A stretch of DNA of 48,435 nucleotides from Escherichia phage EcoIv28_Lewi: the sequence record OX461087, one strand, 5' to 3'. This document shows, one piece after another, positions 4,906 through 47,807 of the stretch (the stretch's first letter is position 1; every line of letters starts with the position of its first letter). Below the pieces are notes generated by a model. The model was not told where the DNA came from, did not search any database, and saw only the letters and a list, made by a program, of their open reading frames with translations. Position numbers and translations under genes: made by a program.

Positions 4906-4940
4906 TTGACGTAGATTGAGCGGTGGTGCATAGTATCTAC
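4906..4940. promoter_or_regulatory. divergent promoter/operator region
   Basis: TTGACGTAGATTGAG then TAGTAT; contains inverted repeat GTAGAT-N18-ATCTAC; lies between the lysis cassette (minus) and a plus-strand block. Confidence 0.4.
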
Positions 4941-4966
4941 ATCAAGTTATGAGTGAGGAAGAAAAC

Positions 4967-6318: not shown

Positions 6319-6346
6319 AAGCCCTCACTTAGAGGGCTTTTTGTTG
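6319..6346. terminator. bidirectional rho-independent terminator
   Basis: Hairpin AAGCCCTC-ACTT-AGAGGGCTT plus T-run; overlaps the stop of the head morphogenesis gene. Confidence 0.55.
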
Positions 6347-7290
6347 TGAGCTGAAAGCCACTTATCTCTTGCTGATATCATCCTTTCAAGAGAGGATTCA
6401 AGCATGATTACATTGCCATTTTCATCTAACATGCATGGTGTTTGCGCACAGTGGCAGCGATAGCGATTTCCGTCCTTTGAGTAAAACTCCTCTACTTCCT
6501 CTGGGCTAAAAGCGCGTGCGTGTCTGGCTGAGTGTGTGGCGCGGGTGGTTTTTAATAATGCCGAAACCCAAAAGAGCGCACTATTTAGCCCCAAAATAAT
6601 CTTTGATTCCTGAACTTCGTCAGACTGCGACTTGCGTAAAATTCCTGTAAGCTCGGTTTGGGCAATATTTTTTGCTCGTGATTCACTTACACCGACGCGC
6701 TTAATGATGTCTGACTCAATATCTCTCGGATTAGAACCAACGGCGATAGCATTCATGATCACTTGAGACAAATCATTTCTCGCCGCATCGCCAATGCCAA
6801 CCCAATCACTGTAAGTGGTGGCATTGGCAATAGATAGCCGCTGCAAATATGGCTCCGAGTAAATAATGTCTGCAATTGAACGGCGCTCAGCATATAGTGG
6901 AGACATGGCTGCCAGTTGTTGTTGCGCCTCGACCGTACCAGCTGAATAGGCGTCAGAGACATAAATTGACATCCAGAACTGACCTGCATTCATCGGCTGT
7001 GTGTCGTCAAGCAGGATTTCATCAATTAGCTGTTGTAATGCCTCATTGAATTGAGCTGCCCGAGCAGCTGAAAAATCATACCTGTAACCATAGGCATCAA
7101 TGGAGTTAATTGCGGCAAATGGGATTGACCTGAATAAGTCTATGACTGACGATTTAAGGCGCTTGTATCGCGCCTCAATCTGTTTGTTTGCCTTGCTTAG
7201 TCTCCTGTTAGCTCCAACAGGGTCTGTTTTGCTGGTTGGTATTTTCGGACCAACCAGTCTGGCACTAACCTTAAAGATTTTGATTTTCAT
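6325..7290 (-). CDS. head morphogenesis protein (SPP1 gp7 / Mu F-like minor capsid protein)
   Basis: Resemblance to the phage head morphogenesis family; directly downstream of portal; start trimmed to ATG overlapping the portal 3' end. Confidence 0.7.
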
Positions 7291-8674
7291 CGTCAGGATT
7301 ACCCTCAGTGACGATCTGAAGTTCTTCAATCGGCTCCATACCAACCATGCCTCTGGCTTCATCCACGGTCAGCAACGCAGATTGACCAGCATCAAAGAAC
7401 GACTTGTTCGCAGTGGCGAGCTTAGTCAGCAACTCGGCTTTATCCAGTTCAGATGGGGCAAGAAGGTCATCCCACTTAACCTTGTAGCCGTTTGCCGGGG
7501 CTTTATCGACAATGCCGAACTGAATCATGCGCTCAACAAACATTGAAATGACATAATCAACCCACGTCTCGCGGCGCTGTTTGGCAGTCATCGCCTCCTG
7601 CATCTTGTCTTCATCGCTCGCAAGGCGTCCAGTTTGCTGGCCAAAAATGACGGTGAACGGAAGTGCCATTGATGCAGCGAACTGATTGGCAGCCACTTCC
7701 CATGTTGGTTTCGGGTCAGCTGGCGTTACGGATAACACCTGAGTCTCTGCGCCCATGCTAAATAGTGCGGCGTCAATGCCAGAATTCAGCATCTCGATGT
7801 TATCGTTCATGATATCAATAAGTTCATCCTGAGATACACCCATCGACTGCGCAAGGCTTGCTGGTGTTACGTTGTCCTTCGTATAGTTAACGGCAAGTTG
7901 ACGGCTTGCGTTCTTCAGGAAGCCTTCCGCAGAACTACCGGAAACTTTAGCCATGTCGATAAGGCTGTTGTAGCCAGCGCGTAGCATCGGGATGCCACTG
8001 AACATACTGCCATCGAAGCTGCCCTCTGCCAGAATGATAATGCGGTCAGGATGAATCTGCACGGAACGCTCAGGTTTACCATCGCTGTCGAAGTCTTCCA
8101 CGGCGCTTTCCTGATATTCGTACATCTCAGGCATTCCGTAGTCTTCGCTGGTTTCGTCGTTATTCCACGCGCTAACGCGGAGCTGTTCTTCCCATACCGG
8201 AATGAAGCGAACGATGGATTTATCTTTAATGCGGCGGGTTTTGGTGACGTCTACAGGCTCACTCCACTGCTTACCATCGCGGATTTGCAGGATGACAGCA
8301 GAGTAACGGTTGATGGCGTTGCGCTTGTCAGCTTCCTTGATGAACGGGTATGCGCGCTTCATCATGTCATTGATGGACAATTCCCACGGCGTTGAGTTCT
8401 TGTCATCCTCTCCATCTTCGACAACTTCTGGGTATTTCTGCCAGCATTTATTAATAATGCGGTTAATGCCAGCGGCGGCGGCTGGGTGTCGCTCGTATGC
8501 ATAGCGGAACATCTCGGCGGTGATTTCCTGCGGGTAGCCCAGCTCCTTCCACATGAACTCACGTTTCTGGTCCAAGTTCTTCCCACCAGCACAAAGCCGT
8601 TGTTGCTGAAGCGCCCGGTTATTGTTCGCCACGCGGTCGCGTATGTAGGCGTTTAGTGCATCAATTTTTGACAT
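7271..8674 (-). CDS. portal protein
   Basis: 467 aa, acidic C-terminus, position upstream of head morphogenesis gene. Confidence 0.8.
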
Positions 8675-8679
8675 ATGTC

Positions 8680-8709
8680 ACCAATAAAAATCCCTCACGA
8701 TGGAGGGAT
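8680..8709 (-). terminator. rho-independent terminator-like hairpin just upstream of portal
   Basis: On minus strand ATCCCTCC-loop-GAGGGAT followed by TTTTATT. Confidence 0.45.
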
Positions 8710-8729
8710 TATAGCATGGGGATAGTGCC

Positions 8730-9107
8730 TTATTTTGATTTGCCTGATGACTTGGATATGAAATCCTCTAACTCTCCATCGCTAGTCTTCTGACGGTTAA
8801 GGAAAAATCTATCTGCTCCGAACTTACCCCGCTCCCTTTCATGTATCAGGTTACCGGTTTCGCGGATGGTTTCAGGCAATCCCTGCATGAATATGGCGGG
8901 AATGAACATGACCAAAATCAGAATTACTTTCCACCAGACTGAACAGAAATACTGAGCCTCGAGAATGTTTTTCTCTGGATGCCAGTAATATTCAATCTTT
9001 GCGCCAAATCTCTGCTTCCTCCTTGGTAGCATTTTGTTATGCTGCCTCCGCGTGACTGGTATTCTTATGAACCCATCATTACATGGATTTTTATATTTAT
9101 AAACCAT
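8730..9107 (-). CDS. hypothetical membrane-associated protein
   Basis: Track ORF 8730..9155 trimmed to ATG with GAGGTG RBS; hydrophobic segment. Confidence 0.45.
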   Translation of the reverse strand: MVYKYKNPCNDGFIRIPVTRRQHNKMLPRRKQRFGAKIEYYWHPEKNILEAQYFCSVWWKVILILVMFIPAIFMQGLPETIRETGNLIHERERGKFGADRFFLNRQKTSDGELEDFISKSSGKSK

Positions 9108-9281
9108 AATCACACCTCTATTTAAAACATTGATAAAGCAAGCATGGAACAACACCAGCTACCACAGCGAAAAATGAACCAACTATAAAGTGAATCCATC
9201 TTGGTTCATTCACTCCGGCAGCCATAGCCCACCAGAACATAAAGTTAAATGGAATCCAGAACGACCAGAATAGCGCCATCA

Positions 9282-9500
9282 CTACACCTCATCATCAACG
9301 AGCGATCTGAACCATGCGGGATATGACTTCGACCCGAGTTTATGGTCAATCTTCTGAATGTAACGCGCCGCGTCATCCAGTTTGTCGGAAATATAATAAA
9401 GCGACTTTCTTGCGCCAATAAGCATGACAGCGAATATCAGCATCACAATCAGGTGCGGGTTGATGATGCAGAACAGTATTGTTTTGACAGCTTTCATCAC
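9282..9500 (-). CDS. small membrane protein (72 aa)
   Basis: Track ORF; one hydrophobic helix. Confidence 0.4.
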   Translation of the reverse strand: MMKAVKTILFCIINPHLIVMLIFAVMLIGARKSLYYISDKLDDAARYIQKIDHKLGSKSYPAWFRSLVDDEV

Positions 9501-10010
9501 TCAACCTCCACTAATCATGTGTGATAGTCTCTCGCGTCCGGATATTGCAGCAATCTCCGCCTCTTCAATCGTCTTGTAGTAACCAAGTGAGTGTTGCTTC
9601 TTGTTAAAGAAAATTGTTGCGCGATACAGCCCTGACGGCCTATGTAGTGAGACTCCTTTAATTCCTGTGTGATTATTCTTGTATGGTCCTCGCGTTTTTG
9701 CATGATTAATTTTGCAATCAGTCATTTTCCTGCACCCGGCTGGCGTTATAGATAAATCACTCCATTTAGCACTAAATGGGTTTTGTGAAATAGAATAAAC
9801 ACTCTGTCCTTCAGGCGGAAATTCTCCAGTCATATAAAGCCACGCCAGTCGTCTTGCGGTGTATTGTTTTCCCAGGATTGTTATTAAGTAACAATACTTA
9901 GTTATGCTCCCAGCTAATTTCCCGACTCTGCCACCACGCAACCAGATGAAATCACCAGACTCAGGATAATACCTTAACCATGCCTTTAATTCTTTCTGGG
10001 TAAGCATCAC
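9501..10010 (-). CDS. degenerate HNH-AP2 homing-endonuclease paralog
   Basis: N-terminus and AP2-like C-terminus match the other HNH genes, but the DHING..DNR..NLR motif is absent. Confidence 0.6.
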   Translation of the reverse strand: MMLTQKELKAWLRYYPESGDFIWLRGGRVGKLAGSITKYCYLITILGKQYTARRLAWLYMTGEFPPEGQSVYSISQNPFSAKWSDLSITPAGCRKMTDCKINHAKTRGPYKNNHTGIKGVSLHRPSGLYRATIFFNKKQHSLGYYKTIEEAEIAAISGRERLSHMISGG

Positions 10011-10176
10011 TCAATCTCCTCACCATTAACCCAGCGTTGCAGGACTTCGATTAGTTGCGCGGCTTGTCGCTTGTCAAGCTGAACCCAGTCGTCACATTGC
10101 CTTAAATTTATTACTAGTTCTGTATTTATATACAGACTGTGGCATTCATTTGTTTTTTCAATAATCATCACTCACC

Positions 10177-10584
10177 TCAACAAAGTTCACCATCAGTTAT
10201 CATCAACAACCTCTGCCATTTAGCTACCGGCTTACACAGTTCAGATTTCAATCTGCTTAACGAGACTGTGATATCAGGCCACTCGGTAAACGGAACAAAT
10301 CGCACAAATCTATAATCAGCACCAGCCCAGTGCCAGCCAAGCGTATAGTCGATGTATGTGCCGTCTTGCTGCATATTGATGTAATGCGCCGTTGCGCCAT
10401 CATCATTAATCATAACCACCTCAACCACTGCGCACGAACTACCATCCCGTGCACGGTTCACTGCATTCAGGTGACAGGCATGATTGTACAGTCCAGTTCC
10501 GTCTATGAATGATATATCAATCTTTTTGCTGTATTTCTTATCAGCAGCATCGCGGATTATTTTCTTTAATTTATTCCTGAACAT
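10177..10584 (-). CDS. hypothetical protein (~135 aa)
   Basis: Track ORF 10177..10629 trimmed to ATG overlapping upstream gene stop. Confidence 0.45.
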   Translation of the reverse strand: MFRNKLKKIIRDAADKKYSKKIDISFIDGTGLYNHACHLNAVNRARDGSSCAVVEVVMINDDGATAHYINMQQDGTYIDYTLGWHWAGADYRFVRFVPFTEWPDITVSLSRLKSELCKPVAKWQRLLMITDGELC

Positions 10585-10780
10585 AATTAATCCACCATGC
10601 GGCAATTGCTGAGAAAATCCACAGGGCAATAAAAAGACGGAAAACCTGCCAATTTAGAATGTCATCAACACTTGGCGCTTCCCATCTAATCAACCAGATA
10701 AGTGGGAAAGCAAGCGCAAGCGCAATGGTGTACTTAATACCAATAAACAGAAAATCCCTTGCAAAACCTCTCATAATCAC
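10571..10780 (-). CDS. small membrane protein (69 aa)
   Basis: Track ORF, two hydrophobic segments. Confidence 0.4.
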   Translation of the reverse strand: MIMRGFARDFLFIGIKYTIALALAFPLIWLIRWEAPSVDDILNWQVFRLFIALWIFSAIAAWWINYVQE

Positions 10781-10983
10781 CCTCTCAAAAAATCATTCTT
10801 GCAGCAGATACCCTTGTAACCGCGCTTCTCTTGCAGGTTAACGAAAACATCATCAATTACGCGCAGCAGGAAATCCTCGTCGATATCATACCGACGGCAA
10901 ATCACATCATCAGGCACACCAGCCCGCGCCAGTGAATAAACCTGCTCTTTCTCCTCCTGTGTGAATCCTGCATAGCTGCGCAT
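10777..10983 (-). CDS. hypothetical protein (~68 aa)
   Basis: Track ORF 10777..11043 trimmed to ATG with GGAGAT RBS. Confidence 0.45.
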   Translation of the reverse strand: MRSYAGFTQEEKEQVYSLARAGVPDDVICRRYDIDEDFLLRVIDDVFVNLQEKRGYKGICCKNDFLRG

Positions 10984-11014
10984 AGTGATATCTCCGGTAA
11001 GCCTGATGTAGATT

Positions 11015-11110
11015 ATACTATGCGCTCGGTGTAGATTGGTCAAGTGTGGTGATGCAGGTTTATCAACATTAATAATAAATATTGACGTAGAAATGGTGGT
11101 GATGTAGATT
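11015..11110. promoter_or_regulatory. divergent promoters
   Basis: Minus: TTGACC-N17-TAGTAT (11043..11015); plus: TTGACG-N17-TAGATT (11082..11110); extra TGTAGATT copies nearby. Confidence 0.45.
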
Positions 11111-11145
11111 TAACTAAACCGGAAATTCTTATGTGAGGTGATGAG

Positions 11146-11321
11146 ATGTTTGAAGCATACAAATCAAAAATAACTGGCAGCACATACCTGTTTGCGCCAG
11201 CAAATGGTCTGGTTTTTGTTTGTCGTGGCAAAGACAACACCGATGAAACGAGAATGACAAAAGACGACATAGATATGTATGTCAGAAATGGAGTTATGGA
11301 AGAAGCGGAGTGTCCAGCATG
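11146..11321 (+). CDS. small hypothetical protein (58 aa)
   Basis: ATG after GAGGTGATGAG RBS; coupled by ATGA overlap to next gene. Confidence 0.4.
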
Positions 11322-11501
11322 AGCCATACAAGACCAAGAGTTAACAAAAAAGTAAGAGAAGAGGCAATAGAGCACTTTAAAAGCCACCATGGAAATCACT
11401 CACACGAGGTGATTGTTGGTATAGATGTAGAGAAGATGAAAGAAACCGCAAAACACTACAAAGGAAGGGTTAATCTTGCGGATTATGGAATAGCGGAATA
11501 A
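11319..11501 (+). CDS. small hypothetical protein (60 aa)
   Basis: Track ORF 11310..11501, ATG at 11319. Confidence 0.45.
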   Translation: MSHTRPRVNKKVREEAIEHFKSHHGNHSHEVIVGIDVEKMKETAKHYKGRVNLADYGIAE

Positions 11502-11505
11502 GCAT

Positions 11506-11536
11506 AAGCCCTCGAATGAGGGCTTTATTTTTATCT
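11506..11536. terminator. bidirectional rho-independent terminator
   Basis: Hairpin AAGCCCTC-GAAT-GAGGGCTT plus T-run between convergent genes. Confidence 0.6.
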
Positions 11537-12955
11537 CCTGCGACGGATTAGCATTCCGCTACCGCGTTGAACGATGTGGTCTCCAAGTCCATAGCGTAAA
11601 CTATCAATCGCGTGATTGTATTTATCAACTATGTCAGGGAGTATGTTGCCTGTTAACTTATCAACCTTATAGCTATACATTGTCATCTCTTCAATGACGT
11701 GTTTACATCTTGAGTGTACGTAAATCCTGTCGCACCCACGAAGCCACGTAATCCCGTCCTCAATGCTCCCAGGCCATTTTGCGCACGGATGAATATCGAA
11801 TCCAGATCGGCGTATATGGCTTATTGTTTCAGGCCTTGCGCAATCCCCATACCATCTGTACTTCTCTGAATTTGGGAATGCTGAGCGCATCGCTTCTGGC
11901 GTGTCAGTTATCTCAAGGCCAACCTTTGCAAAGTCACGATAGATATATAGATTTCTGCGCCCATCTCCCAAATCTTCTACATATGATTCTGTTGCTGCGG
12001 TTGCATCCTGAGAAAAACCAAAGTCAATGCCATAATATGGACCTCCCCATTCTGGAGATGGCTCGAAGTCCAGCGTTTGCCATTTTCCGCCAAGCACGGC
12101 CTCTTCGGAACGCTTGTTGAATAACCCTTCATACACCCACAGATAGCGATCATAATCCACCGCCTTCATCTGGTTCATGTGCTGTTTAAGTTCTTCCGTG
12201 AACCACGGGTTGTGGACGTAGTTAACATTAACAACAACGATGTCATCATCCTGATATATGCCATCAACCATCTTGTCGATGTAAGGCTCAACAAAGTTAG
12301 TCCACGTTGGGTCCGTCTCTTTATTAGGGTTAAAAACAATGATAATTTCAGAGCCAGCCGCACGGACTGTTGGGATAAGCGTATCCCATGACACCTGACT
12401 GATGTTTTCGGATTCTTCACAGAAGACATCCGTAAGGCCAGCCATGCCCTTGATTGCGGTTATGTTTCGCCAAAGGCCACGAAAAACAAACTTTGATCTC
12501 GTTGTGTGGTGTGTTATCTCGCCATCCACGCAACGATATTCCTGAGTGTGCCCCTTCCTGTTTATCTCATCGACCAGCTCGGCATAGCTTGATTCTTTGA
12601 TTGAGTTCTGTATCTCACGGAAGCATCCGACGCGGCTGTTGCGGAATCTTGCCTTTTCTATCAGGTAAGACACGACGTTAGCCGTCTTTCCGCTTCCCCT
12701 ACCACCATAGAACACTTTGAAGCGACGAGGGTAAAGCAATAGCTCCATCCGCTTTGGTATCAGAATTGTTGGCTCTTCGTTTGTTTCCGAGACACCTGTT
12801 GCTGTCATTTTCAGGCGCTTTATAACATTAGGCGTTCCATCAGCAAGAAGTTTATCAACAATGCCAAACACAGCAGACTCAGGCTTTGCAGTTGAGTTGC
12901 CAACTACCTGTTCAAGTTTTTCGATTGCCACACTTGAGAGTCTTTTTCTAGCCAT
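11531..12955 (-). CDS. terminase large subunit
   Basis: 474 aa; Walker A-like GGRGSGKT; ATPase plus nuclease architecture. Confidence 0.9.
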   Translation of the reverse strand: MARKRLSSVAIEKLEQVVGNSTAKPESAVFGIVDKLLADGTPNVIKRLKMTATGVSETNEEPTILIPKRMELLLYPRRFKVFYGGRGSGKTANVVSYLIEKARFRNSRVGCFREIQNSIKESSYAELVDEINRKGHTQEYRCVDGEITHHTTRSKFVFRGLWRNITAIKGMAGLTDVFCEESENISQVSWDTLIPTVRAAGSEIIIVFNPNKETDPTWTNFVEPYIDKMVDGIYQDDDIVVVNVNYVHNPWFTEELKQHMNQMKAVDYDRYLWVYEGLFNKRSEEAVLGGKWQTLDFEPSPEWGGPYYGIDFGFSQDATAATESYVEDLGDGRRNLYIYRDFAKVGLEITDTPEAMRSAFPNSEKYRWYGDCARPETISHIRRSGFDIHPCAKWPGSIEDGITWLRGCDRIYVHSRCKHVIEEMTMYSYKVDKLTGNILPDIVDKYNHAIDSLRYGLGDHIVQRGSGMLIRRRR

Positions 12956-13463
12956 GATTACAAAACTCCCCGTGATTTTTCTCTCTTTCTTCCATTATCT
13001 TTTTGACTGCATCTTCAATGTTGGCGAACCGGCCAAGGTTAACCATCCTGCCATTTATATTTAATCTTGCCATCCACTTGCATCTTGATTTATCCCAATA
13101 CACACCCTTAACCCCTGATGTGTTGTTTGCCTGTAGCTTTTTGTTGTAACCATTTTGCTGATGGTCAGCCTCTCGCAGATTAACAAAACGATTATCAAGC
13201 GTATTGTTGTTTATGTGGTCTATTTCTTTTTCAGGCCAACTACCAGTCATGTAAAGCCAAGCCAGCCTGTGCGATCTATACCACTTTCTTCCAAAATGAA
13301 TATAGTGATACGGTCGCTTGCTACCAACGGAGCCGCATAATTTTATTGTTCCTGCCGGCTTCCCGGGTTTAGCCCTTCCCTGCTTGTGTGGGTTTTTCCA
13401 TGTAAAAATTCCGGTTTCAGGATTGTAATCAAGGATGTGTTTTAATTCTGCTTGCGTAAGCAT
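12948..13463 (-). CDS. HNH-AP2 homing endonuclease between terS and terL
   Basis: Motif EIDHINNNTLDNRFVNLRE plus AP2-like C-terminus; stop overlaps terL start (ATGGCTAG). Confidence 0.8.
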   Translation of the reverse strand: MLTQAELKHILDYNPETGIFTWKNPHKQGRAKPGKPAGTIKLCGSVGSKRPYHYIHFGRKWYRSHRLAWLYMTGSWPEKEIDHINNNTLDNRFVNLREADHQQNGYNKKLQANNTSGVKGVYWDKSRCKWMARLNINGRMVNLGRFANIEDAVKKIMEEREKNHGEFCNHG

Positions 13464-13562
13464 ATATAGATTCCTCATCAGGGCATCATTGAAGTGAATG
13501 CGGCAGGCGGTGATGAGTCGCTTTTCGGGTGCCCCCTAGCCGCATTGATTATTATAAATCAG

Positions 13563-14006
13563 TTACTGTTGCTGCTCCAGTAATTTCTCCAGCCGCTCAA
13601 GTCTCGCGGCGAGTTCGGTTAACTCTTTCACGTCAAGACCAACCTTAATCATAGACACAACCTGAGACGCAACATCAATTGGTAGTTCTCCACTGGAGAC
13701 AGATTGAATGACGTCCTCTATCTGCTCAACTGGAGTGGCATCTTTGCGGTATTTAAAATTAACCGGAGGTGCCATGCTTTTTTGCACGGGGCTGATGCGC
13801 AGGAATATCTCCTTCAGCATCTGCACGCCTTGAGTCGGGTTTTCCTCAGTCATCCTGATTGACGTCCTGATGAATGCGTCAAGGAATTCCTCCTCTCCAA
13901 GCCCGCATCGCTTTAATGCTTCAATAAGCCTGTTTCTGTAGCTTAATCCTCTGCCAGCAGGCTGGTATTCAGAGGAAAATTTCATTACAGGGTTTGGATT
14001 AGCCAT
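13563..14006 (-). CDS. terminase small subunit (putative)
   Basis: 147 aa immediately upstream of terL, coiled-coil C-terminus. Confidence 0.55.
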   Translation of the reverse strand: MANPNPVMKFSSEYQPAGRGLSYRNRLIEALKRCGLGEEEFLDAFIRTSIRMTEENPTQGVQMLKEIFLRISPVQKSMAPPVNFKYRKDATPVEQIEDVIQSVSSGELPIDVASQVVSMIKVGLDVKELTELAARLERLEKLLEQQQ

Positions 14007-32925: not shown

Positions 32926-35267
32926 TATTCTGTTGCTCTCCGGTTTGTTGAGTAATTTCTTGAAATAGCCTGCCCTATCGCGCCATTGTTCTCAATATCA
33001 CTAACGATAGTCTCAATTGTTACGCTGCCATCACCGTTATCTCTGGCGCTGCTGCTAACCTGCGCTGAGCTGTTATTGATGACGTTATTATAAACCACAA
33101 CGCCACTACCACCTCCGGTAATGTCTTTGTTGCTGATAACACGACCACTATCGCCCGGTATCATGTACTGATGACCGTTTGATGCCTGGAATATCTCAGG
33201 GAGGTTATTCTCTCCGACTCGGTACATTGAGCCTTCCTGCGCTGGCCCACCATTTTTCAGCGCGCCAGCAATAGACATTGTCTTTGCGAGGCCAACCGTT
33301 GCCCCAATTCCTGCCATAGCAGGGGCTGAGTTTGCGCCAGCGGTTGCAAGAGATGTCATTGCTGCTGCTGGAGCCATCGCCGCTGATATTGCCGCAGCCT
33401 GAGCTATCGTCGCAGCAGAAGCTGCGCTCATTCCTGCTGTACCCATGATAGCTGATTTGGCCCAATCTATACCCATTTGCACAAACGCATTGATAACACT
33501 GGACAGAATATTTGAACCAATTGAGCGTAGAGCCTCTGATACAGACATTGAACCAGTAAGGATGCCAGTAAGCGCATTTCCAGCAGTCTGCCCAAAAGCA
33601 TCAAACGCAGCAGCCGCCGCTTGTGTGGCTGCGCTTTGCTGACTCCATTCCTGCCACATTGCTTCAATTCTTTGCTGTCTGTACTGCTCTTCAATTGTAG
33701 CTCTGGTTTGCTGTATCTCTGCCATCTTTTGCGGGTACGCTTTGGCATAAGCATCCAAATCAGCCATATCCTTCTGATAGGATGTTTCTACAGCAAACAT
33801 TGGTGAGGTTTGCGATTTTAGTGCGCTGTATCCTTTTACGGCATCTATTCTTTTCTTCTCCGCAGTCGCCTGTTCCTTCAGTGCATTCTTCTGGTCCCAA
33901 ATCTTCGCAGCGTACTGGCCAGCCAGTTTTATTTGCTCCTGAGTTGCGTCCTTGCCAAGCGATTGCTGCGCGTTGAGAATGGCTTGCTCGCGGGATAGTT
34001 CGCTGGTTGATGTGGCGTTAAGCATGGTTTGCTGGCGTAACTTCTCCAGCTTTTCAGCAACTGACTCAGCTTGCCGTTCTTCGGCGCTTTTGCCTGTTGC
34101 TTTTTTCTTTTTCTCTTTTTCTGCTGCCTTTGGTACTGTCAAATGAGCCTGCGCCTTTGCCGCCTCTCCTGTCGATTTGGTGACAGCATCCATATCTGCG
34201 ACCAATGTGGCAGCCTGATTTGCTACCGCCGCTATAGCCTGATTCTGCGCAGCCCAACCATCAATACCAATCCATGACCATGTTCTTGCTCTGCGACTGA
34301 ACATTTCTGCTGTTGATGTCAAATCAGAAATAACCTCTGCCGCACCTATAGTCTGACCAGTTAGTCTGTTGATTGCTGAGGTAATAGAGTCAATAACAGA
34401 AACAAAAGTGGAACTGGCTCCTGTTGCTTCGTTTATGCTTGCTATCATTTTTGCAAATGATGTTTCAAGACTGCCAGTAGCCTGAGATATAGAGCGCGGT
34501 AGTTTTGCGAACTCAGCATTGACGACGCTAGTCCTGTCCTGAATGGCGTTCAGGGCATCTTCCGCCGTCAGTTTACCGTCGAGCATTCTGGCACGAAGCT
34601 CACCCATTGAAATGCCAAGACCCGCCGCTATCTGACGCGCAAGTTCAGGCATCTGCTCAAGGATAGAGTTAAATTCTTCGGCGCGGATTGTGCCAGATGC
34701 GATTGACTGACCGAACTGACGTAATGCGTTCGCCATTTCTTCAGTTGATGACCCACCGATTCTACCTATTTTTTGCAGGGTATCTGTGAGGTTAAGAACC
34801 TGCGCATTTGTCGCTCCAGCCTCTTTCAGTGATGATGTTAATGTCTCCCACAACTTCGTGGTGTCACTGAGGCTTGCGCCAGTGGTAGAGGCGATATTTG
34901 TCAGCGAATTGAAGGTTTCCTTCGCGGTCTCAGCATCTCCTGTTAACCTTTTTATCCTTGCCTGTAGCTGTGTCATGTTGTCAGCTATCTCAAGGAAAGC
35001 CTTACCCCATCCAATGATTAACGACACTGAGATTGCACCAGCCAGCATCGACATGCTGGTCTTGAGTCCTGAAGCTGCGCCGCCAGCATTCTTCATTCCG
35101 CTGCCAGCATTTCTGGCGTTTTTATCCAACTTGCCAAGCGCATTTGTGGTTTTGTTGGTTGATGATTCAAGGTCATCTAAAGTCTTATTGGCTGTTGTCG
35201 CGCCAGCTTTCAGGCCTTTAACATCCATCCCGACTTCATATACAATTCCGCCGACTTCTTCAGCCAT
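32925..35267 (-). CDS. tail tape measure protein
   Basis: 780 aa, Ala/Gly/Ser-rich with long coiled coils and hydrophobic stretch. Confidence 0.85.
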   Translation of the reverse strand: MAEEVGGIVYEVGMDVKGLKAGATTANKTLDDLESSTNKTTNALGKLDKNARNAGSGMKNAGGAASGLKTSMSMLAGAISVSLIIGWGKAFLEIADNMTQLQARIKRLTGDAETAKETFNSLTNIASTTGASLSDTTKLWETLTSSLKEAGATNAQVLNLTDTLQKIGRIGGSSTEEMANALRQFGQSIASGTIRAEEFNSILEQMPELARQIAAGLGISMGELRARMLDGKLTAEDALNAIQDRTSVVNAEFAKLPRSISQATGSLETSFAKMIASINEATGASSTFVSVIDSITSAINRLTGQTIGAAEVISDLTSTAEMFSRRARTWSWIGIDGWAAQNQAIAAVANQAATLVADMDAVTKSTGEAAKAQAHLTVPKAAEKEKKKKATGKSAEERQAESVAEKLEKLRQQTMLNATSTSELSREQAILNAQQSLGKDATQEQIKLAGQYAAKIWDQKNALKEQATAEKKRIDAVKGYSALKSQTSPMFAVETSYQKDMADLDAYAKAYPQKMAEIQQTRATIEEQYRQQRIEAMWQEWSQQSAATQAAAAAFDAFGQTAGNALTGILTGSMSVSEALRSIGSNILSSVINAFVQMGIDWAKSAIMGTAGMSAASAATIAQAAAISAAMAPAAAMTSLATAGANSAPAMAGIGATVGLAKTMSIAGALKNGGPAQEGSMYRVGENNLPEIFQASNGHQYMIPGDSGRVISNKDITGGGSGVVVYNNVINNSSAQVSSSARDNGDGSVTIETIVSDIENNGAIGQAISRNYSTNRRATE

Positions 35268-35974
35268 TATGTATTCCTCGCTTTTTTCGCTTTGCGTTCA
35301 GCCAGTGCCTTCATGCGCTCGCGGTCTGCTTTAGCCTGATCGTACTCTGCCGCGCGCTCTTCTTTCGTTAACCCTTTCGGCTCTGGATATTTATTCTTAA
35401 TCATCATCTGAAACTCTGTCATGGACAGGTTTTCGGCCTCATCACGAGTCATATCGAAGTGCGTGCGTGCTGAGATGATGTATTGCGACGCATGAAACTC
35501 GTTTGTGGTTTTCTTGCCCTGCTCTTCCAGACGTTCGGGCACTTTGAGTGGCGACTTGCCAATGATGCCATGCTGCATCAGGTTGCGCGCAATAATAATA
35601 ATGTCGCTCACTGGTATGATGCCGGGAACGTATCGCACGCCGCGCGGCGTTGGCTTCCATCCGCCAATCAGCACAGAAATATCATCTTCACAGCATGACT
35701 GCATTACGATATAGGCCGCACTCAGCACATGACGACCATACACAGGCTTGCTGATGGTCTTCATAACCTGCATCTGAGCGCCAAATGGCAGGTATTCGAC
35801 GTGCTGCAAGGGCGCGACATAATCAATGCCATTGAGTTTAGCGTACACCTCGACGATTTCTTTTGGTGTGCCAATTTCATTCATGGCGCGGAATGATGGC
35901 TTGAAGAAAAAACTCCTGTCGGAAAGCGAGATGCGCATCTCCCCGATTTCTGTTAGTGGCGTGCGATTTTTCAT
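35267..35974 (-). CDS. tail assembly chaperone (putative)
   Basis: 235 aa immediately upstream of the tape measure with ATGA overlap; charged C-terminus. Confidence 0.5.
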   Translation of the reverse strand: MKNRTPLTEIGEMRISLSDRSFFFKPSFRAMNEIGTPKEIVEVYAKLNGIDYVAPLQHVEYLPFGAQMQVMKTISKPVYGRHVLSAAYIVMQSCCEDDISVLIGGWKPTPRGVRYVPGIIPVSDIIIIARNLMQHGIIGKSPLKVPERLEEQGKKTTNEFHASQYIISARTHFDMTRDEAENLSMTEFQMMIKNKYPEPKGLTKEERAAEYDQAKADRERMKALAERKAKKARNT

Positions 35975-36003
35975 TGCGTAACCCTGTCTGTGTAATGGTG
36001 TGA

Positions 36004-36042
36004 TTATACCATTTGACAGGTTGCGCAGACTTGGTGTAGATT
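36004..36042. promoter_or_regulatory. divergent promoters
   Basis: Minus: extended -10 TGGTATAAT; plus: TTGACA-N18-TAGATT (36013..36042). Confidence 0.45.
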
Positions 36043-36074
36043 TAAGTCATGTTGATGTAGATTGAGGTTCGAGT

Positions 36075-36455: not shown

Positions 36456-36504
36456 GTTTTGCATCCTGAATTTGACTGATGTTGATTATATCATCTCAGT
36501 GGTG

Positions 36505-38177: not shown

Positions 38178-38228
38178 TTCGATCTCCGAATTGTGTTAGC
38201 TGCTAACGTGGTGATTATATCACAGGTG

Positions 38229-44226: not shown

Positions 44227-44256
44227 CAAGCCCTCAATCGAGGGCTTTATTTATTC
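44227..44256. terminator. bidirectional rho-independent terminator
   Basis: Hairpin AAGCCCTC-AATC-GAGGGCTT plus T-run. Confidence 0.6.
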
Positions 44257-47470: not shown

Positions 47471-47807
47471 GGTTAACTCTCCACGGTTAGTTTGTGGTCG
47501 AATTATAACACAGGGAGATATAGCACCATGAGGCGGTAGCCAGTGCAAATAATGGCGAGTCAGTGAGTGCGTAGAGCGTGAGAAAGTAAGTAATAGGGAT
47601 TATGTTCATGGGCCACCTCCTGATTAAAGGATAGCAGCCCATGATGAACAAAAGATATACGGTGTTAGTCTGAAATCACATCATCCATGAATGCAAGCGC
47701 AGCACCTGACAGGCAGAACAGAGCGCTATAGCAAATCATTTGGTACAGAGTGTCAGCCTCAAATACCCGAGCGAATGCGTATGCTGATAATATCCAAAGC
47801 AATGGAA

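Follow-up and report, generated by a model that had tools for sequence, protein, structure and literature searches.

Extra genes that sit between conserved morphogenesis genes have been reported as the morons of lambdoid phages of the HK97/HK022 type (Juhala et al. 2000; Hendrix et al. 2000). Morons carry a sigma-70-type promoter and a factor-independent terminator of their own, and close relatives differ in whether they have morons and in what these contain. A similar layout, with predicted promoter and terminator and with variable content, is seen in the stretch of DNA that concerns us here: the interval between terL, the gene for the terminase large subunit, and the portal gene in Escherichia phage EcoIv28_Lewi (sequence record OX461087, whose 48,435 nucleotides (nt) we call the window). 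Like a moron, the interval separates genes that adjoin in other relatives. Unlike a moron, it holds several genes rather than a single prophage-expressed one, its first gene, open reading frame (ORF) H, is found in every locus examined, and the phages are reported, in literature abstracts, as lytic. Moreover, while the lambdoid late transcript passes moron terminators by Q antitermination, here transcription appears to be restarted by a promoter nested in the terminator directly before portal, and it is this element that we analyze.

An accessory block as such is ordinary for phage genomes, and the predicted terminator, a conserved but modest one, is already annotated in a relative, Salmonella phage Skate (MH321493), as the same hairpin in the same position and direction. 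What is new here is an invariant extended -10 element, TGCTATAAT, a predicted promoter nested in that terminator; the Skate annotation makes no mention of the overlapping element. In the literature searched we found neither a publication on the Skate terminator upstream of portal nor a promoter or transcript study of Skatevirus. Like extended -10 promoters of the galP1 type, TGCTATAAT has a TG one base before TATAAT, no recognisable -35 element and a purine 7 nt downstream. Unlike at galP1, the region predicted to be transcribed first belongs to the terminator of the preceding unit, namely its 5' arm and loop. A functional parallel comes from phage T7: Bao and Forster (bioRxiv 10.64898/2026.02.12.705533) report class II terminators that serve at the same time as extended-TGn promoters used by E. 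coli RNA polymerase. As in that case, one short DNA element would join a terminator and an extended -10 sigma-70 promoter function; the T7 elements are hairpin-independent, act on T7 RNA polymerase and were found in engineered contexts, whereas the module described here would be a hairpin (class I) terminator for the host polymerase at a natural gene junction that is conserved across genera.

Results

On the side of portal the interval ends in a module of about 45 base pairs (bp) in which hairpin and extended -10 element share DNA. Its parts, and the genes that bound the interval, are as follows.

11531-12955, minus strand: terL, terminase large subunit (PHROG terminase large subunit families, E 3e-53)
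8716-8708, minus strand: extended -10 element TGCTATAAT, a perfect TGnTATAAT read from the sequence
8710-8689, minus strand: predicted intrinsic-terminator hairpin AATCCCTC-CATCGT-GAGGGATT, at the end of the ORF H-A operon
8688-8683, minus strand: T-tract TTTATT, a run of five T if the final two bases of the stem are counted in
8682-8678, minus strand: Shine-Dalgarno sequence GGTGA of portal, conserved in relatives
7271-8674, minus strand: portal gene, conserved downstream flank of the interval (phrog_146, E 1e-106)

From the terL stop at 11531 to the portal ATG at 8674 there are 2856 nt, in agreement with the ~2.8 kb given in an earlier note on this DNA, and both genes are identified by PHROGs. 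The same note had placed a strong hairpin with a T-run 6 nt upstream of portal. Hairpin and T-run are present, and conserved, but neither the strength nor the distance stands: the stem has 8 bp, 4 of them G-C pairs, with a 6-nt loop and a folding energy of ~-10.9 kcal/mol, and it ends 14 nt, and the T-tract 8 nt, upstream of the ATG, the tract being followed by GGTGA, CAT and then the ATG itself. Compared with shuffled sequences the fold has z = -1.7, and 11 of 200 shuffles fold as well. What lends the predicted terminator its significance is that it is conserved and covaries; the single sequence would not do so.

For comparison we used 37 portal-centred loci, in 33 of which both terL and portal were found. 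A hairpin occupies the same place in every relative examined and is followed by 5-7 T, with 6-7 T in the relatives and the shortest tract of the set in the window. We count at least 7 stem and loop variants. The stems include CCCTC/GAGGG, CCCATC/GATGGG with a base pair inserted, CCCC/GGGG and, with G-U pairs, ACCCTTAC/GTGAGGGT; cores of 4, 5 or 6 bp lie inside full stems of 7-9 bp, while the loops of 5-6 nt vary freely (CATCGT, CAACGT, CAATGT, CATGC, CATAC, ACTACC, TTAATT, AGAAAT). The main stem variants fold at ~-11 to -12.5 kcal/mol, variant V4 at -15.5 and a mismatched copy of V3b (L032) at -4.8. In an alignment of the 12 distinct variants 98.9% of the cells are paired and three pairs have changed on both sides; none of 500 shuffles did as well, and slid registers of the same alignment give 38-60% pairing. 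The G-U pairs and the inserted A-T pair favour an RNA structure, and since the opposite strand has no T-tract the element would be unidirectional. A G+C stem, a short loop and a T-tract, with the structure rather than the sequence conserved in relatives, make up the anatomy of an intrinsic terminator. Rfam gave no match within 8400-11700.

The element TGCTATAAT overlaps the 5' arm of this hairpin, with the first three stem bases in common, and no -35 match was found upstream of it. Extended -10 promoters need no -35 element, so that the element can be independent of whichever gene lies upstream. The upstream neighbours differ: from 10 nt further 5' onwards identity is at background, and unrelated genes of the cassette, as we call the exchangeable small genes, end 3-13 nt away from the module. 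TGnTATAAT nevertheless stands upstream of portal in all of the portal-centred loci readable there (37/37), as well as in CF-SP1, VLCpiS13f, pIS4-A, ZC2 and further IMG/VR contigs, which were filtered from a pattern scan whose raw matches were mostly unrelated chance matches. No relative examined departs from TG or from TATAAT, while n is C, T or A. A purine follows the hexamer after 7-8 nt in every variant (A8701 in the window, at 7 nt). In V4, the variant of Skatevirus seszw, L037 and VLCpiS13f, a stem of different sequence begins 1-2 nt further downstream, leaving TATAAT outside it, and TGATATAAT is kept. The element thus has a TG one base before TATAAT, is conserved whatever its neighbour, and is placed before a gene start with a purine ~7 nt downstream, as an extended -10 promoter would be. 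The module as a whole was found in phages of the Skatevirus, Swiduovirus and Roufvirus types from Salmonella, Escherichia, Klebsiella and Aeromonas.

Two other readings of the nonamer were rejected. A mini-ORF, ATG-nTA-TAA, inside ATGnTATAAT is an automatic consequence of the nonamer, and a sigma-dependent pause or Q-loading site of the lambda pR' type would call for a conserved promoter within upstream reach, where there is none. We also observed that the portal coding sequence of CF-SP1 (L044, OM912979) is annotated 20 codons too long; the extension (2879-2938) crosses the TGCTATAAT-hairpin module, and it is from residue 21 on that the protein aligns with the portal of the window.

The nonamer is not confined to portal. 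The window holds five copies, against 1.9 expected, all of them intergenic and 25-35 nt before start codons.

8708-8716, 36003-36011, 36485-36493, 38214-38222 and 47502-47510, minus strand: TGnTATAAT sites

Four of these precede sizeable genes of the structural region, namely portal, the major tail protein gene, the pre-tape-measure gene and a phrog_760 gene, and the fifth lies before a short ORF. Related loci totalling 413 kb have 46 sites on the portal strand and 4 on the other, with ~9 expected per strand, and the site before the major tail protein gene is kept in 34 of 34 relatives, two of which have replaced upstream sequence. This distribution suggests that TGnTATAAT represents a class of -35-independent promoters for structural-gene units. 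No other terminator-like hairpin in the window overlaps an extended -10 element, so the portal module is not a repeated element. On a separate matter, the short ORF that follows TGATATAAT at 36485 (starting at ~36454, minus strand) begins with MSNRTP and the 235-residue gene of the next site (35267-35974, minus strand) with MKNRTP, and the former may have arisen by partial duplication of a promoter and the 5' end of a gene.

The interval upstream of the module is variable. The distance between terL and portal runs from 535 to 2856 nt in the 33 loci, the window having the longest. According to ORF clustering, ORF H (phrog_13301) is the only interval gene present in all of them (33/33), while the remaining positions are filled, in varying order, by ~20 small gene families. 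These occupy two variable slots, one for reverse-strand genes between terL and the promoter module described below, the other for forward genes between ORF H and portal. ORF A, the last gene before the module, has a DNA match in none of 48 compared loci and protein homologs in only 9 phage records (best 74% amino acid identity). The interval is a hypervariable accessory-gene locus of Skatevirus-type siphophages. The term accessory block, used in the earlier note, suits the genes that vary and that can be deleted in seszw; ORF H, found in every locus examined, is an exception.

The flanking genes vary as well. Relative to the window, terL alleles fall into classes of ~96-100% or ~61% amino acid identity and portal alleles into classes of ~92-95% or ~68%, and the classes occur in all four combinations (loci L004-L037), that is, they reassort freely. 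Portal itself is a mosaic in which segments of 50% and 90% nucleotide identity alternate. Against this background the module has a sharp upstream edge, homology to Salmonella phage PSH-1 stopping exactly at 8719; the module together with the ~100 nt at the start of portal stays 83-100% identical, even between portal alleles whose sliding identity then falls to ~50% at the nucleotide level. The layout extends beyond Skatevirus to Swiduovirus CF-SP1 (portal 60% identical), Roufvirus pIS4-A and the Klebsiella phages ZC2 and VLCpiS13f. Homologs of portal occur in 341 phage records. In Mannheimia phage 535AP2 and Hafnia phage Pocitis76 (portal 41-43% identical) terL and portal are adjacent or overlapping, and these are relatives of the kind that the earlier note had expected.

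Transcription of the cassette would begin in a second conserved module, between ORF H and ORF I. Its features are listed with the sites of a motif that recurs elsewhere in the window and with the hairpin that lies between it and terL.

11043-11015, minus strand: predicted sigma-70 promoter TTGACC-17-TAGTAT of the ORF H operon (consensus scan)
11082-11110, plus strand: predicted sigma-70 promoter TTGACG-17-TAGATT of ORFs I and J (consensus scan)
1628-1663, 4907-4944, 11004-11109, 16373, 20247, 23296, 36032-36062, 36523 and 38247: ATCTACAYCA sites
11506-11525: bidirectional terminator-like hairpin AAGCCCTC-GAAT-GAGGGCTT, where terL converges with ORFs I and J

The divergent pair had been noticed earlier, and it is there; bare sigma-70 consensus matches in the window are not above chance (14 found, 16 expected), yet the whole ~130-nt divergent module is kept in relatives next to unrelated flanking genes. 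The sequence of the ORF H promoter is nearly identical in all relatives, and the plus-strand promoter is conserved beside reverse-strand genes that are unrelated to one another. In 10 of the 33 loci the ORF H promoter directly follows the terL stop; otherwise reverse-strand genes and the bidirectional hairpin intervene, the hairpin being found after terL in the 23 loci that have reverse-strand genes here. The ORF H promoter arrangement recurs in Swiduovirus CF-SP1 and in Roufvirus. Read on the plus strand the hairpin has a good T-run, and on the minus strand a weaker one.

Both promoters have copies of ATCTACRYCA lying over their -35 and -10 regions. Two ATCTACAYCA boxes lie at the minus promoter, one in its spacer (11036-11027) and one just past its -10 region (11013-11004), and the plus promoter is overlapped by ATCTACRYCA at 11100-11109 and by a degenerate copy at 11083-11092. 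Genome-wide, with at most one mismatch, ATCTACAYCA has 29 matches, where 6.1 +/- 2.4 are expected; they form clusters at intergenic promoters, some as inverted pairs, and the motif is found at ~-45 before the TGnTATAAT sites of tail genes. One cluster lies beside the gene for ORF H, tentatively a helix-turn-helix protein. From its distribution ATCTACAYCA is probably the operator of a phage regulator.

As a side observation on the terminators, the hairpins at 6319-6339, 11506-11525 and 44228-44247 have a common stem, AAGCCCTC/GAGGGCTT, with differing loops, and the first two mark convergent gene junctions. The core of the portal hairpin, CCCTC/GAGGG, is related to this stem. The likeness among the window's terminators may reflect duplication or gene conversion.

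Discussion

How could essential head genes be expressed steadily below a locus whose content changes from phage to phage? In the picture that we propose, the divergent sigma-70 module (11004-11110) would fire both ways. Rightward it would drive two small genes and end, together with terL, at the bidirectional terminator. Leftward it would drive an eight-gene operon, with the always-present ORF H first and swappable small genes after it, which would stop at the intrinsic terminator formed by 8710-8689 and the T-tract. A sigma-70 promoter starts transcription ~7 nt past its -10 hexamer, and TGCTATAAT would accordingly start a new transcript at A8701, the second base of the hairpin loop. This transcript would have a 27-nt leader with the Shine-Dalgarno sequence GGTGA and with the 3' arm only, so that on the messenger RNA (mRNA) for portal and head morphogenesis, which would lack the 5' arm, the hairpin terminator could not form. 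A module of ~45 bp would thus stop transcription of the cassette and restart that of the head genes at a fixed level, insulating essential genes from cassette exchange, and would itself bound exchange on the right-hand side. About 15 bp are enough for an extended -10 promoter, and this makes it the sole type of sigma-70 promoter indifferent to swaps of upstream DNA. The earlier note had offered read-through or an unseen promoter as the source of head-gene transcripts; a candidate for such a promoter, still a predicted one, has been found in TGCTATAAT, and the mutant seszw_190L, discussed below, would fit read-through as well.

Weighing all of the evidence, we lean, if only slightly, towards the dual-function model, in which a combined terminator and nested promoter would insulate the head genes from the cassette. 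The fuller proposal, that the ~45-bp CCATGnTATAAT-hairpin-T-tract module is a selected insulator with its promoter nested in its terminator and is also a fixed recombination joint, we put forward more tentatively, stopping a little short of endorsing it. What has been observed is how the module is built, that it is conserved and covaries, that the cassette varies, and that a relative can do without some of its cassette genes.

Several points weigh against the dual-function model. Promoter activity, start site and termination are predictions for the whole group, as are termination efficiency and expression timing. Taken as a single sequence the hairpin folds unremarkably, its T-tract in the window is the shortest of the set, and termination may be leaky. 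The compensatory changes in the stem stem from few independent events. In the main variants (V1-V3, V5-V7) TATAAT contributes its last three bases to the stem, and its conservation could in part be structural. With recombination as free as it is here, identical modules may owe their identity partly to recent spread and not to selection. Furthermore, a polymerase arriving from upstream crosses the promoter before it terminates, and promoter occlusion would not be prevented.

A further objection comes from Skatevirus seszw, for which many mutant genomes obtained by CRISPR-based genome reduction have been deposited (PMC9825161). Many viable mutants are without the HNH gene before portal, some also without gene 64, and the designed deletions retain the TGATATAAT-hairpin module. 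The large-plaque isolate seszw_190L (MZ375331), however, has lost the HNH gene, the nonamer, the hairpin and the Shine-Dalgarno sequence; at its junction (L039, ~1229/1230) ...GTGCGTTAG is joined directly to TTTTTTATG of portal. Since this mutant is viable without the module, upstream transcripts can supply portal expression, and under laboratory conditions the phage can do without the module. The loss of both halves together fits an insulator, and it fits simple read-through equally. The ORF H homolog and its promoter module are retained in the three seszw mutant loci that were read, and none of the seszw records listed covers less than 60% of the query. Independently, we note an extended -10-like site, TGCTAAAAT, in the intergenic DNA before the seszw HNH gene (L041, 1150-1280); it could serve as a source of portal transcription in the module-less mutant.

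The best surviving alternative, though in our view an unlikely one, is that the hairpin is only a leaky terminator or attenuator and that portal and the head-morphogenesis gene are expressed by read-through, either from the ORF H promoter or from a terS-terL transcript, with TATAAT kept as A/T bases of the stem or by descent. The viability of seszw_190L, the modest hairpin with its short T-tract in the window, and the pairing of AAT in the main variants all speak for it. What it does not account for is that TG and TAT, which lie outside the stem, are invariant while n varies, that V4 keeps TGATATAAT though its stem starts 1-2 nt later and leaves AAT unused, and that the same nonamer marks the starts of other structural genes with a strong strand bias.

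It is considerably less probable that the module is mainly a homology patch for recombination, with no dedicated transcriptional role and with its identity maintained by repeated gene conversion. Breakpoints exactly at the upstream edge of the module, conservation that runs ~100 nt into portal, and the reassortment of terL and portal alleles are what such a patch would produce, but compensatory stem changes, free loops, a kept T-tract and an invariant nonamer with a variable n are not expected from it. The idea is in any case compatible with a transcriptional role, and both may hold.

We regard as very improbable that the inverted repeat is a DNA operator, bound by a phage or host regulator of the overlapping portal promoter, rather than an RNA structure. 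A palindrome over the predicted start is in the typical position for a repressor, and the genome has another repeated regulatory motif in ATCTACAYCA; that motif is absent at the portal hairpin, however, and both the sequence and the spacing of the half-sites change. Two positions are kept as G-U pairs, which would be mismatches in DNA. Together with arms of changing length and a T-tract that always follows the stem, the G-U pairs argue for an RNA terminator and not for a protein-binding palindrome. We likewise give hardly any credence to a stabiliser in the 5' untranslated region, or a ribonuclease processing site, of a portal mRNA started further upstream: the hairpin is close to the Shine-Dalgarno sequence, and the V4 3' arm contains it (GAGGG), so that structure could gate translation, but the upstream sequence is unrelated between relatives, hence offers no conserved promoter, and the element has full intrinsic-terminator anatomy and no Rfam match.

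If the dual-function model is true, the module would be a small, naturally occurring part by which an essential structural gene is expressed independently of upstream inserts, and it would explain how a hypervariable locus can sit harmlessly inside the packaging and head module. More generally, structural-gene units in these phages would start from -35-independent TGnTATAAT promoters. Skatevirus-type phages are used in Salmonella biocontrol and form part of the BASEL collection, and in engineered phages of this type the module would offer a defined safe site for payloads together with a boundary. If the model is false, what is left is an ordinary variable accessory block with a terminator already annotated in a relative.

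Accessory genes and flanking regions

The window holds the genome of a Skatevirus-type siphophage, complete or nearly so. It comes closest to the records of Salmonella phage PSH-1, Escherichia phages Bas77/78 and Salmonella phage IME207, with ~90-94% identity over the parts in common. Skatevirus is the classification of related records, and a placement of the phage in Guernseyvirinae was dropped in view of it. The genes of the interval and of its flanks are given below; lengths are in amino acids (aa), and membrane assignments rest on hydropathy only (a Kyte-Doolittle segment of >=1.5 over 19 residues).

13563-14006, minus strand: phrog_9747 gene
12948-13478, minus strand: intact HNH_3+AP2 endonuclease gene, paralog of ORF D
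11310-11501, plus strand: ORF J (phrog_12120, E 2e-25)
11146-11322, plus strand: ORF I, 58 aa, Shine-Dalgarno sequence GAGGTGA, homologs in L007 and L037
10777-10983, minus strand: ORF H, 68 aa (phrog_13301, E 1e-47)
10571-10780, minus strand: ORF G, 69 aa, two hydrophobic segments by hydropathy, in 5/33 loci
10177-10584, minus strand: ORF F, 135 aa, soluble (phrog_6596, E 4e-44)
10007-10171, minus strand: ORF E, 54 aa, in 18/33 loci (phrog_13627, E 7e-15)
9501-10010, minus strand: ORF D, 169 aa, HNH/AP2 relative without the HNH motif
9282-9497, minus strand: ORF C, 71 aa, N-terminal hydrophobic segment by hydropathy (phrog_5603, E 1e-4)
9118-9279, minus strand: ORF B, 53 aa, one segment passing the hydropathy cut-off, in 11/33 loci
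8730-9107, minus strand: ORF A, 125 aa, one hydrophobic segment, last cassette gene (phrog_15458, E 4.5e-13)
6325-7362, minus strand: SPP1 gp7-like head-morphogenesis gene

On the minus strand the order is thus the phrog_9747 gene, the HNH_3+AP2 gene, terL, the interval, portal and the head-morphogenesis gene, the unit of the last two ending at the hairpin 6339-6319. The eight minus-strand ORFs of the interval, from H to A, are close-packed or overlapping and make up a compact predicted operon; a clear Shine-Dalgarno sequence precedes seven of them and a weaker one precedes ORF F. The small membrane proteins that the earlier note had seen correspond to ORFs A, B, C and G, each with one or two hydrophobic segments of membrane-spanning length; the N-terminus of ORF B, read by eye, is an aromatic-rich hydrophobic stretch. 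The two plus-strand genes were also correctly described, ORFs I and J converging on terL at the 11506-11525 hairpin. ORF J has 63 residues if it starts at the GTG at 11310 or, more likely, 60 from the ATG at 11319, and L007 and L037 have homologs of it in the same position. Searches of Pfam, PHROGs, NCBIfam and PADLOC with the accessory proteins returned families of unknown function or sub-threshold noise and no defence-system match; ORF I gave no family match.

The resemblance of ORF D to phage HNH-AP2 homing endonucleases (HNH_3 + AP2; phrog_99) lies in the N-terminal region and an AP2-like domain; unlike them, it has no catalytic HNH motif and is a gene under purifying selection. It is 32% identical to the intact paralog at 12948-13478, the two being alike in the N-terminal region and in an AP2-like domain at the C-terminus, and in a pairwise alignment the region of the DH...N...H motif is replaced. 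Pfam gave no HNH_3 match for ORF D, whereas the window paralog scores 55 bits and the gene of seszw 82 bits; the AP2 match reaches 27.6 bits (E 3.7e-6), under the gathering score of 33.3 bits. An intact HNH gene fills the slot of ORF D in seszw, L037 and VLCpiS13f. The only other copy of ORF D is in L029 (gap 450-956), and between the two copies the ratio of nonsynonymous to synonymous change (dN/dS) is 0.084 with dS 0.94, at which synonymous sites are nearly saturated; the stretch that stands in place of the motif (YSISQNPFS.KWSDLSITPAGC) is likewise conserved between them. While the HNH gene is degenerate in its motif, as had been noted, selection as strong as this (dN/dS 0.08) means that it is not a decaying gene. 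By these comparisons ORF D is probably a non-catalytic DNA-binding derivative of a homing endonuclease rather than a nuclease, which suggests a new function for a former homing endonuclease.

ORF H is modelled by AlphaFold2 as a small helical protein (predicted local distance difference test, pLDDT, 79). Its top fold matches in the PDB are all helix-turn-helix DNA-binding domains, but at E 0.33 or worse none is significant, and a profile search of PDB sequences returned nothing; we tentatively take the model to represent a small helix-turn-helix protein.

The AlphaFold2 model of ORF F is confident (pLDDT 86), with no fold match in the PDB and with BFVD matches only to uncharacterised phage proteins, among them Gp040 of Erwinia phage S6 (vB_EamP-S6; E 5e-13). 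Cys37, His67, Asp79 and Asp90 are invariant; a papain-like thiol hydrolase, considered from the invariant Cys, His and Asp, was dropped as lacking structural support. Structural homologs of ORF F occur in unrelated phages, as Gp040 of Erwinia phage vB_EamP-S6 and in Vibrio phage JA-1, and ORF F (phrog_6596) appears to be a widespread accessory protein.

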